Shown here piece after piece: positions 47,870 to 53,125 of a stretch of 64,000 nt of DNA. The first letter of the stretch is position 1, and every line of letters begins with the position of its first letter. Source of the DNA: Planctomycetota bacterium. GTDB lineage: Bacteria > Planctomycetota > SZUA-567 > H5-PLA8. Location of the stretch: positions 32,409 to 96,408 of the forward strand of contig JBBRPR010000031.1 in NCBI GenBank assembly GCA_038227875.1. Direction: 5' to 3'. The position numbers and the translations under genes were made by a program. The notes beneath the pieces are model-generated. The model saw nothing but the letters and a program-made list of their open reading frames with translations, was not told the origin of the DNA and made no database searches.

Positions 47870-48862
47870 ATGCTTAAACGCCCGCTCGGATCCCACGGAC
47901 TTCGCGTCTCGTCGCTTGGCCTTGGCTGCATGGGGATGAGCGAGTTTTACGACCCGAAGCAGATGAACGACGCGGAGTCGATTCGCGTGATTCATCATTA
48001 CCTGGATGCGGGCGGGAACTTTCTCGACACGGCCGATATGTACGGTGTCGGACGCAACGAAGAACTGGTCGGCAAGGCGATCGCCGGCCGGCGCGACGCG
48101 GTGGTGCTGGCCACAAAGTTCGCGAACGTGCGCGGTCCCAAGGGAGAATTCCTGGGAATCCGCGGCGACGCGAAATACGTGAAGGAATGCTGCGACGCCA
48201 GTCTCAAGCGGCTGGGCGTCACGCATATCGACCTCTACTACCAGCACCGCGTCGATCCCAAGACGCCGATCGAAGAGACCGTCGGCGCGATGGCGGAACT
48301 GGTAACGGCGGGCAAGGTGCGGCACCTCGGCCTTTCCGAAGCCTCGCCGGCCACGATCCGCCGCGCCGCGAAGGTCCATGCGATTGCCGCGCTGCAATCG
48401 GAGTACTCCCTGTGGAGCCGCGAACCGGAAGAACAGATTCTCCCGACGCTGCGCGAGCTGGGAATCGGCTTTGTCGCGTACAGTCCGCTCGGCCGCGGCT
48501 TTCTTACCGGACAGTTCAAGACGTTCGAAGATCTGCCGGCCGACGACTACCGCCGCCAGTCGCCGCGTTTTCAGGGCGAGAATTTCCAGAAGAATCTCGC
48601 GCTGGTCGAACAGATCAAGCAGCTGGCCGCGAGCCGGAAGTGCACGGCCGGTCAACTGGCGCTGGCGTGGGTGCTGGCGCAAGGGCAGGACATCGTGCCG
48701 ATTCCGGGCACCAAGCAGATCAAATACCTGGACGACAATCTCGGCGCGGCCAACGTAAGCCTCTCGGCAGCGGAGATGGCGCAGATCAACGCGATCATGC
48801 CCGCGGGTGCGGCCTCGGGAACGCGCTATCCGGCGCAAAGCATGAAAACGCTCGACGCATGA
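47870..48862 (+). CDS. Aldo/keto reductase
   Basis: [36 protein letters not shown]. Confidence 0.93.
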
Positions 48863-48924
48863 ACGCTCTCAGACCTGGGTTGATCGACAGCTCGGCATAA
48901 ATTTATCCGATGGTTAAAACGGGA

Positions 48925-49014
48925 CACCTCGCCGCCAATTGGCGGCATGGTCAAAATGACCTGTGCATCAATTGATGCAGGGGTCTGACCTTGGAGACAA
49001 TTGTCTTCAGGGTA
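48925..49014. repeat. Three tandem 28-bp palindromic units (ACCT-N6-CAATTG-N7-GGT)
   Basis: CACCTC-GCCGC-CAATTG-GCGGC-ATGGTC; GACCTG-TGCAT-CAATTG-ATGCA-GGGGTC; GACCTT-GGAGA-CAATTG-TCTTC-AGGGTA. Confidence 0.8.
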
Positions 49015-49159
49015 GTCCGTTGTTGCACTTCGATTCGGCCGGTTTTCTCCTCTGTAAATTGATTTGCGACAATTCGAAAGAATTTTGTCGCATTCGTTCA
49101 CGTGTCTCCGTTGGAAGGGGAAAGCGGATTACTGTTTTCGGCGACGGAGGTAGATTAAG

Positions 49160-52100
49160 ATGCTGACACTGGATGATCGCCGCACGCGCACGCTTCGGAG
49201 CGAACGGATGAGCTCACGGACCGACCTACTTGCGTATGGCGATGCGGCTTATCTCCTGGCCTATCGCATCACCGGAAACAGCGCCGACGCCGAAGACGTG
49301 GTGCAGGACGCGTACTTGCGCGCGTTGCGTCACGCGGCTGAACACACGCTGCCGGAAGGCGATGAGTTGCGGAAATGGTTCCTGCGCGTCGTCGCCAACG
49401 CCGCGAAGGATTTCCGTTCCGCAAAACAGAGCCGCCAGGCCCGGGAGAAAACCGCCATGTCCGAATCCACATCCAGCGCCGCGCCGCATCAGGAACAGGA
49501 CGTCCTGCGCGACGCGATCGCCGAAGCGCTCAACGGCTTGGATGAAAGTTTGCGCGTGCCGGTCTGCCTGCATTACGAGCAGGGACTTTCCTACGCGGAG
49601 GCGGCGGAGGTGCTGGGCGCGCCCGAAGGGACGCTACGCAAGTACGCCAGCCGTGGAATCGAACTGCTGCGCGAGAAGTTGGCACGGCAGGGACACGTGG
49701 TTGCACCGGCACTGATCACGGCGACGCTGGCCAAAGGTCTGGGCATTGCAGCGCCGGCATCGCTGGCCGCTTCCGTGAGCGGACTTGTTGCGGGTGGCGC
49801 GCTGCCGGCCGCGAAAGCGGCGGCCACGGCGACCACCATTGCGGGAGCCACCGCGGCCACGGGGCTCACGGTGAAATTGGTGGTCGCGGCGGTGCTGGTT
49901 TTTGGAGCGTGTACGGCAGTGAAACTCGCGGGCACTGGTCCCGTCAAACCCCTCGAAACAGGCGGCGAGAAGGAGACTGCGTCAGCGGCTGATCCGGAAC
50001 ATTTGAAGGCGGTCGCCAGCGCCTGGCTGTCCAGCTACCCGGGCGAAGAGAACACGAGTTGCGGCAAGGGCGAACAGTTCAAGTTGAAGACCTACCAGGA
50101 GTGCGCTCTGCTCCGCTTTGAAAATGGACCGCGCCGAGGGCGCGAAGTGGCCAGCGCGCGGCTCTTTTTGAAACCTGCCGGTCCGATCAAGATCCGCTAT
50201 CTGCGCCTTTCCACAGTCAATGGCGACTGGACAGAAGGAAATGGTACAAAAAATTATGGACCCGCCGACGGCGCGACATTCTCGCAGGCCGATTCCACCG
50301 CGAAACGCGCGTGGTCCTGGCCGGGATCGGAAGCCAGCGATGTGATCATGACAAACGGCAATACGCTGGCGTGCTACGGCGAAATCAAGGATGAGGCGGA
50401 CGGCTGGATTTCGGTCAACGTCGCTCCGGAACTGATTTACGCGCTGGCCAACAACGACACGGATGGCCTGGCGGTGTTAGAGGGCGGCACGATTCTGCTG
50501 GCCAACAATTTCTTCTACAGTTCGCATTCAAAGGGTAACGAGCCGCGGCTGGACATCACCTATGGCGCGGAGGTCAAAGAAGCTCCCGCAGCACCGGCGC
50601 TCGTCGCAGAAGGTGCGGCCGCGCAGGCGCATCTCAAAACGGGCGCTGCGAAAATTGTGATTTCGGAAGCGGCCGGCGTAGCGTGCTGGAAACTCAAGCT
50701 CGACGGCAAGCCCGTCGAACGCTGGCGCGTGAAGCATCCGGAGTCAAAGGGCGCGACGACGTTGGTGCTCGAGGATCTGGAACCGAACAGCGTTCACGAA
50801 TTGGAAACGGTCGCAATCGGGCGCGGCGGACAGACGTCGGAGCCGACGCGGGTGAAGTTCACGTCCTCACCGGCGCTGCCAGTCCCGGCGGAGATTCAGG
50901 TCAAGGTTCCTGAGAAGAGCACCGGAACTGCTGCGTCCAACGCCGTGATCCGCGCATGGGCGTTTCCGCCGCTGGTGAAACTGAGTCCTGAGAAGCCGGA
51001 ATTGATCTGCGGCGACGAGAAGGCCACGGAGCATCCGCAGAACGGCAATGCGGTGTGGAATGGCAAGTCGATCCAGCTCTGCGGTGCGCGTGGCGAGATT
51101 GTCTCCTATCAACTCTGCATTGAGAAACTGGGCGAGGAACCGCTCAGCGGCGTGACGGTAACGCCACTGGAATTGAGCGGGCCCGGCGGTGCCGTGATCG
51201 GCGTGCAGAACATCGAACTCTTTAAGAATTGGTACGCGCAGAATTCCGCCAAGCAGTGGCAGCCCGCGTACGGCGTGCCGCTGCCGACGGGGCATGAGTT
51301 CAGCATTCCGGATCCCAAGCGCACGTTACTGCCGAAACAGCAGAATCAGAGTCTGTACGTGGACCTTTTCATACCGAAGACAGCCGCTGCTGGCGCATAT
51401 GCCGGAAACATTGTGGTTCGGGTCGGTGGCGAGAATGCGCTGACGCTACCAGTCGCGCTCACCGTCTTCGACTTTACGCTGCCGGACGAACTGTCCTTCC
51501 GCCCGGAGCTCAACGCCTACTCCACGCCCGCGGAATCCGAACAGTACTACCGCCTCGCCCAGCAGCACCGCTGTGTGCTCAATATTCGCGACAAGCATCA
51601 GCCGATCCGCCTGACCGGCAGCGGCAAGAACGTGCACGTGATCTGGGACGAATACGATCAGTACTTCGGACAGATGTTCTCCGGCGATCTCTTCGCCGGG
51701 AACCACCGCGCGGGAATGCCGCTGGAGTCCCTGTATTTGCCCTACCACGACAACTGGCCGACGGTGCTGACGCAGCAGACCTACAACTATGCGGGCCATT
51801 GGCCGGGCAAGGGCGAATCAACGGAATTCATCCATGAGCACAGCATGAAGGCTCCGCCGATCGAAACGGCGCTGAGCCAGGATTACAAGGACGCGTTCGT
51901 CGCGGTCGAAAAGCAATTCATCGAGCATTTCAAAGCGCGCGGTTGGACGCAGACGGAAATGCAGATGATTTTCGATGGCAAGGATTACCAGCGCCTCGAT
52001 TTCGGCGCCAACTACTGGTTCACGACCGACGAGCCGTCGCACTGGAACGATTGGCTGGCGGTCCGTTTCTTCTGCAAGCTGTGGAGCGACAACCGCGGCG

Positions 52101-53125
52101 GGGCCGATGCGCGGATCTGGCCGGCGCGGGCGGACATTTCGCGGCCGCAGTGGCAGGCCGCGACGCTCGATGGCGTGGTCAACACGGTTTACTTCGGCAC
52201 CGGCGGATTCAGTTCACCGGCGATGGCGCGGCGGTGCGAAACTCTGGCGGCGCAGGTGCCCCTGAAATGCAACGCGTATGGCGGCTGCAACGCGGATAAT
52301 ACGAGCAACACGAAGACCGTTGCGATCCTGCTCAACGCCTGGCTGCACGGCTCCGAAGCGTTCACGCCATGGCAGACGCTGGGCAACACCGCGTCGCTCG
52401 ATGCCAACGATGAAAACGGCAACGGAAATTCCCTGCTGGCGCCGGCGCGGCGCCTGGGGCCGGCGGTCGTGGCGGACATCCGCCTGAAAGCGATGCGCGA
52501 TGGCGAGCAGTTGATCGAGTATCTGAACATCCTTGCCCAGCGCAACGGCCTGAACCGCGAGCAGCTTCGCGCCATGCTGCTGCCCTCGTTGAACGTGAAC
52601 GCCACAGTGCGCGCCGGAGCCAATGCCGACGACGCCGATGCGCTGGAGGCCAGCACGATTGAGCCCTGGCGCATGGCTGAATTGCGCCAGCGCGTGGCGG
52701 ACTTGATTGCGAAGGGCGAGAGCGCGGAGGTCCTGAAAGTGCAGTCCGTACGTTTGGAGAAAGGCAGCGCGGACGAGAAAATCGGTGCGCTGAAGTCCGT
52801 GAGCCAGACCGGCAATCCCGAACTTCTGAACCGGATGATCGCATTGACGGCCGACGCAGATGTGCGGGTGCGCATCGCCGCGGCGAGCACGCTGTTGAAG
52901 CGCGGCGACGTTCGGGGCGTGGCTCCGCTGCTGGAAATTCTAAATGGGAAAGAGTTGGACTTGAGAACGGCGGCGTACTGGCCGCTGAAGATTCATTCGC
53001 GCACAGCGGTGGCCGATGCCGCGGTGCAAGCCGCGCTGACACAGTTTGAAAAGGAGCGCGCTGAGGCGGTCAAACAAGCGTCAAAAGTGCCGCTGGAACC
53101 GGACGTTAAATCGCAGGACTTTTAA
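49160..53125 (+). CDS. ECF sigma factor fused to a TM segment and a large extracytoplasmic region (FN3-like, GH123/DUF4091-like, HEAT)
   Basis: sigma2 DAEDVVQDAYL...WFLRVVAN; sigma4 LHYEQGLSYAEAAEVLG.PEGT; TM LVVAAVLVFGA; GARGEIVSYQ, DEP and MRDGEQ..EYL motifs; VRIAAA repeats. Confidence 0.85.
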   Translation: MLTLDDRRTRTLRSERMSSRTDLLAYGDAAYLLAYRITGNSADAEDVVQDAYLRALRHAAEHTLPEGDELRKWFLRVVANAAKDFRSAKQSRQAREKTAMSESTSSAAPHQEQDVLRDAIAEALNGLDESLRVPVCLHYEQGLSYAEAAEVLGAPEGTLRKYASRGIELLREKLARQGHVVAPALITATLAKGLGIAAPASLAASVSGLVAGGALPAAKAAATATTIAGATAATGLTVKLVVAAVLVFGACTAVKLAGTGPVKPLETGGEKETASAADPEHLKAVASAWLSSYPGEENTSCGKGEQFKLKTYQECALLRFENGPRRGREVASARLFLKPAGPIKIRYLRLSTVNGDWTEGNGTKNYGPADGATFSQADSTAKRAWSWPGSEASDVIMTNGNTLACYGEIKDEADGWISVNVAPELIYALANNDTDGLAVLEGGTILLANNFFYSSHSKGNEPRLDITYGAEVKEAPAAPALVAEGAAAQAHLKTGAAKIVISEAAGVACWKLKLDGKPVERWRVKHPESKGATTLVLEDLEPNSVHELETVAIGRGGQTSEPTRVKFTSSPALPVPAEIQVKVPEKSTGTAASNAVIRAWAFPPLVKLSPEKPELICGDEKATEHPQNGNAVWNGKSIQLCGARGEIVSYQLCIEKLGEEPLSGVTVTPLELSGPGGAVIGVQNIELFKNWYAQNSAKQWQPAYGVPLPTGHEFSIPDPKRTLLPKQQNQSLYVDLFIPKTAAAGAYAGNIVVRVGGENALTLPVALTVFDFTLPDELSFRPELNAYSTPAESEQYYRLAQQHRCVLNIRDKHQPIRLTGSGKNVHVIWDEYDQYFGQMFSGDLFAGNHRAGMPLESLYLPYHDNWPTVLTQQTYNYAGHWPGKGESTEFIHEHSMKAPPIETALSQDYKDAFVAVEKQFIEHFKARGWTQTEMQMIFDGKDYQRLDFGANYWFTTDEPSHWNDWLAVRFFCKLWSDNRGGADARIWPARADISRPQWQAATLDGVVNTVYFGTGGFSSPAMARRCETLAAQVPLKCNAYGGCNADNTSNTKTVAILLNAWLHGSEAFTPWQTLGNTASLDANDENGNGNSLLAPARRLGPAVVADIRLKAMRDGEQLIEYLNILAQRNGLNREQLRAMLLPSLNVNATVRAGANADDADALEASTIEPWRMAELRQRVADLIAKGESAEVLKVQSVRLEKGSADEKIGALKSVSQTGNPELLNRMIALTADADVRVRIAAASTLLKRGDVRGVAPLLEILNGKELDLRTAAYWPLKIHSRTAVADAAVQAALTQFEKERAEAVKQASKVPLEPDVKSQDF

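Follow-up and report, generated by a model that had tools for sequence, protein, structure and literature searches.

Between an aldo/keto reductase gene and a gene for a fused extracytoplasmic function (ECF) sigma factor, a planctomycete genome carries a tight array of short palindromes, and the locus raises the question of whether this array belongs to its neighboring genes or is one instance of something dispersed over the genome. The stretch analyzed here, called the window in the following, comprises 64,000 nt of contig JBBRPR010000031.1 (positions 32,409 to 96,408 of the forward strand) from the Planctomycetota assembly GCA_038227875.1 (9.34 Mb, 59.6% GC, 176 contigs; labelled G000). A first-pass annotation, made from the letters alone, had described three adjacent 28-nt units with fixed ACCT...GGT ends, a central CAATTG, and differing but complementary inner arms, flanked by another AATT-centered palindrome and a GAAA-looped hairpin. 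It proposed selection on structure and offered as readings a multi-hairpin RNA (a CsrB-like sponge or a leader of the sigma factor gene), single-stranded or cruciform DNA sites, and tyrosine-recombinase sites. According to our analysis, the array is probably a cluster similar to a bacterial interspersed mosaic element (BIME), composed of four copies of a dispersed family resembling repetitive extragenic palindromes (REPs). Among the earlier proposals, the single-stranded or cruciform DNA alternative came closest to the data.

The three units were real, although the 28-nt units turned out to be 26-nt cores with one further base on each side, and the flanking AATT-centered palindrome proved to be a fourth 26-nt unit, here counted as unit 0 (Table 1). 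Units 1 to 3 follow the consensus ACC T N6 CAATTG N7 GGT. This pattern matched the window six times (three sites, both strands) against an expectation of 0.05, and 0 of 100 shuffles gave as high a count; the hexamer CAATTG by itself showed no enrichment there (17 sites vs. 18.2 expected). The four units are spaced by 37, 33, and 29 nt from start to start, and the array begins 27 nt past the reductase stop codon and ends 146 nt ahead of the ECF start codon. As described before, the inner arms are distinct yet complementary, with G-T wobbles in units 2 and 3. The stem of unit 1 contains two mismatches, while that of unit 2 contains a T-G wobble at pair 4/23 and one G-G mismatch, and that of unit 3, read on the + strand, a T-G wobble at pair 4/23 and a G-T wobble at pair 7/20. 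Folded as DNA, units 1, 2, and 3 reached −8.7, −9.0, and −5.0 kcal/mol on the + strand and −9.3, −7.4, and −2.0 kcal/mol on the − strand, respectively.

The same design recurs throughout the genome. Sites of the form ACC-N8-AATT-N8-GGT were found 178 times against 0 for the reversed control, and the window pattern with at most one mismatch gave 61 forward and 67 reverse genome matches, compared with 1 and 0 for its reversed control. When all 26-nt near-palindromes of the whole genome were sorted by their 4-nt center, AATT accounted for 242 and the runner-up, ACGT, for 27. Sorted by center and closing pair, these 242 comprise AAATTT (137), CAATTG (83), GAATTC (21), and TAATTA (1), and 132 of them end in ACC...GGT. 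Approached from the ends instead, palindromes bounded by ACC and GGT occur 195 times at a length of 26 nt and at most 15 times at any other length within 21–36 nt; their centers include AATT (112), TTTG/CAAA (24), CATG (11), ACGT (8), and AGCT (7). Both censuses united yield 355 hairpins. The family unit is 26 nt long and has an ACC/GGT foot, an 11-bp stem, and a 4-nt center that is usually AATT, and the middle seven to eight pairs of the stem vary freely provided they pair. The fixed loop of the first-pass annotation holds for units 1 to 3, whereas the family as a whole uses the several centers listed above. The flanks are unconserved except for a recurrent TCATTTTG / CAAAATGA extension, the same as the spacer between units 1 and 2 at this locus; among the 390 flanks of the 195 ACC..GGT palindromes, the commonest 8-mers were TCATTTTG (14) and TCAAAATG (9).

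A structural covariance model (CM R1) was built from 22 CAATTG units and recovered units 1 and 2 within the window, the former with 34.8 bits. Since the model is biased to CAATTG copies and its 111 genome strand-matches come from 150 candidates scored, the pattern censuses were used for counts instead. At the level of sequence, short BLAST matches to unit 1 number approximately 20 in the rest of the genome. The arms of unit 2 are unique, with no BLAST match elsewhere in the genome, yet the model assigns this unit 37 bits. The stretch of unit 0 gave up to 14 short matches elsewhere in the genome, and its bulged subfamily counts five genome copies with an unchanged 26-nt frame and ACC/GGT-like ends.

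The evidence for a maintained structure comes from the 178 sites, which had been picked by ACC, AATT, and GGT alone, pairing not being required. Watson-Crick pairs filled 1181 of the 1424 variable pair cells (83%), compared with 550 ± 18 cells (39%) and a maximum of 608 after shuffling of the 3′ halves (500 shuffles). All eight variable pair positions use three to four Watson-Crick pair types, and the mean difference between 8-nt arms is 4.96 nt across sites vs. 1.37 nt between the two partners of one site. In the alignment of the 22 CAATTG units, 89.3% of the cells were paired compared with 71.7% after shuffling (reached by 0 of 500 shuffles), and the value was 24–46% when the partners were slid by one to three columns. 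The arms of the family co-vary under a pairing constraint, and the earlier proposal of selection on structure is borne out by these figures. Further copies with new complementary arms, which the annotation had named as the observation that would support it, were found many times over among these sites. That diverged copies still pair may be due either to lasting selection for the hairpin or to one arm being corrected repeatedly against the other.

With respect to position, the 272 copies in which 9 or more of the 11 pairs form were compared with gene calls from a rough codon-usage caller made for this analysis (5588 genes, 81% coding). Between tandem genes, 149 copies were counted (0.176 per kb), between convergent genes 63 (0.234 per kb), and between divergent genes 22 (0.058 per kb). 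A further 34 copies fall inside a called gene and four at contig ends, classes to which no density applies, and 238 of the 272 copies lie outside gene calls (234 in spacers plus the four at contig ends). In tandem spacers, the median distance is 50 nt past the upstream stop and 123 nt ahead of the next start, and 100 copies are closer to the stop while 49 are closer to the start. Clustering is common as well: 201 loci are single, 28 double, and 5 triple, which means that 33 of 234 loci carry two or three units, mostly 27–41 nt apart from start to start.

Some copies also bear signs of copying. A variant with a TTTG loop, the ACC/GGT foot, and a length of 26 nt is present in 23 identical copies and one variant copy with unrelated flanks (for example at G000 C7:6453, C10:49722, and C45:29171), in either orientation relative to genes. 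Set against local GC skew, its copies gave counts of 9, 9, and 5, the skew being weak. The set appears to be the product of a recent expansion of a sister subfamily. In addition, some AATT variants are present three to six times each.

A longer composite repeat includes a family hairpin. It measures approximately 200 nt, occurs in 6–12 copies, and begins with a short AAATTT hairpin and a conserved core of approximately 35 nt, after which come a family hairpin of 26 nt and a T-rich tail that is also conserved (G000 C19:50100-50310, C70:16444-16618, C57:7475-7679, C14:171202-171349, and C85:31500-31634). An Rfam search of these five copies gave no match, and the repeat may be an element similar to miniature inverted-repeat transposable elements or a small RNA gene family.

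The family is limited to a few lineages. Forty relatives from the same family, order, or class (including the unpublished genome G017 with one site) have 0–8 sites each, near the control counts, and a few true palindromes were seen in the relatives G003, G006, and G012. In 400 genomes sampled evenly over the phylum, 0–13 sites each were found, and the top counts were accompanied by equally high controls. Three assemblies of Terriglobia, members of another phylum, contain 26, 18, and 21 sites vs. 0–1 in the control, and in a scan with one genome per species they alone showed repeated matches among the matches listed. Nearly all Terriglobia copies fit ACCT-N4-GCAAATTTGC-N4-AGGT as perfect or near-perfect palindromes, with arm variants particular to each assembly. 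Single perfect palindromes of the same design occur in many unrelated phyla. Viral contigs yielded 33 single matches, 10 of them with at least four of five variable pairs complementary; no viral contig held more than one match, and there was no sign of a phage origin. These lone palindromes in unrelated phyla and viral contigs are most simply explained as chance members of a general palindrome pool. As a separate observation, two unrelated assemblies contain near-identical ACC-N5-GCAAATTTGC-N5-GGT palindromes (three copies at G423:C6 and five in G424).

For comparison, the REPs and BIMEs of Proteobacteria are mobilised by REP-associated tyrosine transposases (RAYTs, TnpA-REP), as described by Nunvar et al. 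(2010, PMC2817692), Bertels and Rainey (2011, PMC3116915), and Di Nocera et al. (2013, PMC3733652). Like these elements, which are short imperfect palindromes of 20–40 nt in more than 100 copies, the family here (26 nt, approximately 355 copies) is extragenic with a place mostly at gene 3′ ends, forms regular short-spaced clusters, comprises several sequence classes per genome, and is lineage-specific. Unlike a REP, the unit is fully symmetric and without orientation, which makes an alternating orientation undefinable, and the family flanks no Y1 or RAYT gene in the genome. Di Nocera and colleagues also described CGTC-tagged REPs and "untagged" stem-loop families that have no dedicated transposase (PMC3733652). 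The present family resembles them in being orphan, abundant, extragenic, and located away from tyrosine transposase genes. Unlike the CGTC REPs, it is defined by a two-sided ACC/GGT foot, an AATT center, and a strict length of 26 nt, and a CGTC tag was found at 1 of the 178 sites vs. 4% of random positions.

The symmetry of the unit has a counterpart in the "double-foot" REPs of the TnpA-Y1 subclass 2.4, perfect palindromes whose foot is reverse-complemented at the 3′ end (Quentin et al. 2018, PMC6006769). One consensus listed for this subclass forms a hairpin of 28 nt in which a stem of 12 bp carries an AATT loop (supplementary file 2, row 104 of PMC6006769). A symmetric REP with an AATT loop has a precedent in this subclass, the foot being different: the double-foot REPs have a GTAG/CTAC foot and flank a subclass 2.4 tnpA-REP gene, whereas the family here has ACC/GGT and no adjacent gene of this kind. 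The same paper reports class 3 TnpA-Y1 hairpins from Planctomycetes and Acidobacteria, with approximately 600 copies in Solibacter usitatus. The likeness extends to the same two phyla and to high-copy, REP-like structures, and our host genome has a class-3-like gene. The class 3 consensus, however, is a CnGA foot followed by GCCGCGAC... (supplementary file 2, rows 432–449) and is unrelated to the family sequence. A CnGA foot was found at 22 of the 178 sites (12%) vs. 10.8% of random positions, and the family has no GCCGCGAC-type weak hairpin with a CnGA foot beside a class 3 gene. In the literature outside subscription journals, no description of an ACC/GGT-footed, AATT-centered 26-nt family was found, and "AATT" occurs 0 times within PMC3733652.

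The Y1 transposase domain PF01797 (Y1_Tnp) gave eight matches in the genome, which correspond to seven genes. Four are IS200-like and one is a frameshifted IS200-like gene (motifs DHVH ... Y-x3-Q), one is class-3-like (NHVH ... YTIDEQ), and one is RAYT-like (EHIH ... YLHNNP). The flanks of the inspected genes carry other inverted repeats or hairpins. The RAYT-like gene (G000 C24:22394-22978) is flanked by its own REP pair, which is unlike the family, the class-3-like TnpA-Y1 gene (C108:10655-11182) by other long hairpins and not by ACC..GGT units, and the four IS200-like genes (C9:158264-158740 and three similar loci) are bracketed by inverted repeats of 29–91 nt. The host genome houses several separate hairpin/transposase systems besides the orphan family. 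Another group of candidates consisted of nine genes flanked by family hairpins on both sides; they were rejected as mobilising enzymes, as five of the six scanned with Pfam encode ordinary housekeeping or structural proteins and one was matchless.

If the array is a BIME-like cluster, its units would spread and persist as single-strand hairpins that arise in DNA while it is replicated or transposed, and a putative enzyme would copy them in trans, by analogy to the copying of REPs by RAYTs. Arm complementarity would be kept through hairpin selection, intrastrand repair, or both, and the units would fold passively in any transcript crossing them. At this locus, the units most likely lie in the 3′ region of the aldo/keto reductase transcript and do not serve the ECF gene in particular. 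A transcript reading through the spacer would carry four stable hairpins, and any effect here would presumably go no further than what stable hairpins do to any transcript that passes through them.

Several points weigh against the REP-like reading. The mobility of the units is presumed by analogy to REPs, and the mobilising enzyme was not found: none of the seven Y1 genes has a family hairpin within 3 kb. In the Terriglobia, the three Y1 loci of G041 and G042 were without a palindromic ACC-N20-GGT, and the third assembly was without a Y1 match. The GT[AG]G tag of classical REPs, searched within 0–2 nt of either foot, was present at 16 of the 178 sites vs. 3.1% of random positions. Moreover, the 178 AATT sites comprise 149 distinct sequences, most of them unique with the pairing kept, and such unique-yet-paired copies are explained by lasting selection for a function in the host no less well than by selfish spread. 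Neither a same-genus genome nor an orthologous locus was found for a comparison of filled and empty sites, and, the gene calls being rough, neither the exact distances nor the assignment of 34 copies to coding sequence is certain.

A further point of this kind is a weak hint from library X7 that the array may be present in RNA. This library is metatranscriptomic and consists of contigs only, without strand or ends, and DNA carry-over is possible. One contig of 151 nt spans positions 48893–49043 with four differences, and a second spans 49062–49212 with none; the adjoining coding sequence had no near-identical contig in this run. Two of the differences are T-to-C changes (48991 and 49007) by which both G-T wobbles of unit 3 become G-C pairs, and the X7 version of this unit is a perfect palindrome identical to the copy at G000 C15:9686. 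Of the DNA runs, one contains all sampled words of the locus and may be the run from which the assembly was made, and X2 contains 34%. X2 and X4 have almost no cover of 48740–49020, a gap to which we attach no meaning.

The main rival of the REP-like reading is that the units are hairpins of the 3′ untranslated region (3′-UTR), selected by the host because they would hold up 3′ exonucleases or stop transcription from both directions with the help of a factor. A protein would possibly recognize the ACC/GGU foot and the AAUU loop, and duplication would merely be the source of new copies. This rival accommodates the location of copies close behind stops and their depletion between divergent genes, the pairing that old diverged copies still retain, and the fact that palindromes fold alike in transcripts from either direction. 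It is also in line with the RNA contigs of X7, which span the array and come from a relative with G-C pairs at both wobble positions of unit 3, although the limits of that library named above apply. However, G-U pairs were no commoner on the transcribed strand: counted by gene direction, G-T vs. A-C mismatches numbered 65 vs. 62 in tandem spacers and 24 vs. 18 in convergent ones. As the wobbles are without a genome-wide strand signal, the main reason to suppose a transcript made from one strand falls away. Intrinsic terminators consist of a GC-rich hairpin followed by a U-tract along transcription. A T-run (at least 5 T in 8 nt) lay downstream of 12 of the 212 oriented copies compared with 34 upstream, and a terminator scan of the locus gave 0, which rules out canonical intrinsic terminators. 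The asymmetric TTTG-loop variant, moreover, stands in both orientations relative to genes, and same-family relatives manage without the hairpins. On balance, host-selected 3′-UTR hairpins appear unlikely as the explanation of the array, and they may hold alongside the REP-like reading.

Two readings tied more closely to the first-pass annotation fare worse. A locus-specific multi-hairpin RNA, either an ECF leader or a CsrB-like sponge displaying C(AAUU)G loops, would draw on four stable hairpins situated 146–270 nt ahead of the ECF start and on the strand shared by both genes, on the better folding of units 2 and 3 on the + strand, on the fold of the whole reductase-ECF spacer (z −4.8), and on the X7 contig that begins at 49062 and enters the ECF gene. 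Yet the same hairpins are found at approximately 230 other intergenic loci beside unrelated genes, such as those for ATP synthase epsilon, YdjC, and oxidoreductases, and family copies typically lie 50 nt past a stop and not ahead of a start. Sponges of the CsrB/RsmZ type carry many hairpins per transcript with a GGA motif in the loops; here, the loops are AAUU without GGA, and the hairpins are scattered and do not belong to one gene. There is, furthermore, no Rfam match and no sigma-70-like promoter in the spacer, no orthologous ECF locus was found to compare, and the only structure unique to the locus is the GAAA-looped hairpin. We find this reading scarcely credible. Double-stranded protein sites, meaning operators of a dimeric regulator or nucleoid protein or the cores of tyrosine-recombinase sites, are also very improbable. 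Perfect two-fold symmetry, a fixed length of 26 bp, conserved outer ACC/GGT, and an AT-rich center would suit such sites, but half-sites read independently leave the matching of the variable positions within a site unexplained, the sites are depleted between divergent genes, where promoters lie, and the 23-copy TTTG-loop variant implies that the center need not be symmetric. Recombinase cores of the dif or att type have conserved inverted arms around a spacer of 6–8 bp, occur at one or few sites per replicon, and come with a recombinase. In the present family, the putative binding arms are the variable part and copies run into the hundreds, with no recombinase nearby; the first-pass annotation saw none in the window, and no search for one was made.

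A more specific and tentative idea is that the hairpins are orphan symmetric replicators, served by a copying enzyme other than Y1 or RAYT or by a dedicated hairpin-binding host protein and expanded in two phyla. We consider this conceivable, albeit doubtful. If it were true, a horizontal spread of the putative partner between the planctomycete and Terriglobia would be implied, and one would expect a gene confined to these genomes whose product is a new nuclease or transposase specific to hairpins, or a new protein that binds them. The look-alike family in another phylum provides a small and tractable genome set in which such a partner could be sought by phylogenetic profiling. Orphan palindrome families are an open end of the REP field with regard to both copying agent and function, and the present data add a clearly delimited REP-like family from a lineage that has received little study. 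Its covariation is unusually clean, its length strict, and its foot symmetric, and none of the Y1 transposases of the genome is linked to it. The data also remove a false lead, namely the array as a riboregulator of the ECF sigma factor.

The features of the locus are compiled in Table 1.

Table 1. Features of the reductase-ECF locus, in window coordinates.
Feature	Position	Strand	Basis
Aldo/keto reductase gene	47870..48862	+	PF00248, E 7e-79; open reading frame list
Unit 0: AAATTT-centered 26-nt family member, bulged subfamily, foot AGC...GGT	48889..48914	.	Sequence
Unit 1: ACC-stem-CAATTG-stem-GGT hairpin, inner arms GCCGC/GCGGC	48926..48951	.	Sequence, pattern
Spacer CAAAATG between units 1 and 2	48952..48958	.	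Recurs flanking family members
Unit 2: ACC-stem-CAATTG-stem-GGT hairpin, inner arms TGCAT/ATGCA	48959..48984	.	Sequence, pattern
Unit 3: ACC-stem-CAATTG-stem-GGT hairpin, inner arms GGAGA/TCTTC	48988..49013	.	Sequence, pattern
GAAA-loop hairpin, not of the family	49065..49092	+	Fold −9.1 kcal/mol, z −4.2
Fusion gene: ECF-type sigma domain with a long C-terminal extension	49160..53125	+	Sigma70_r2, Sigma70_r4_2, HEAT_2; open reading frame list

The GAAA-looped hairpin of the first-pass annotation is real as well. It lies 68 nt ahead of the ECF start and has no second copy in the genome; it may be part of the 5′ region of the ECF gene and could be the sole structure of the spacer that is potentially specific to this locus. 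Scanning the spacer revealed no sigma-70-like promoter and no terminator-like site. The Rfam search suggested by the annotation matched no known family at the locus: over positions 48500–49500, the sole match was a chance one inside the reductase gene (15.5 bits vs. a gathering threshold of 41.2, E 7.1). An orthologue of the fused ECF gene was absent from 16 genomes of the same family, where the best match had 34% identity and covered the C-terminal part only, and likewise from metagenome contigs, whose matches (39% at best) were confined to the sigma domain.

The label of an ECF-GH123 fusion, given to the downstream gene by the annotation, was confirmed in its first half, as sigma-70 regions 2 and 4 were found, while Pfam detected no GH123 domain in the product of 49160–53125 at E ≤ 0.001. 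The C-terminal part of this product (residues approximately 280–1190) has several paralogues without a sigma domain, both in the host genome and in relatives.

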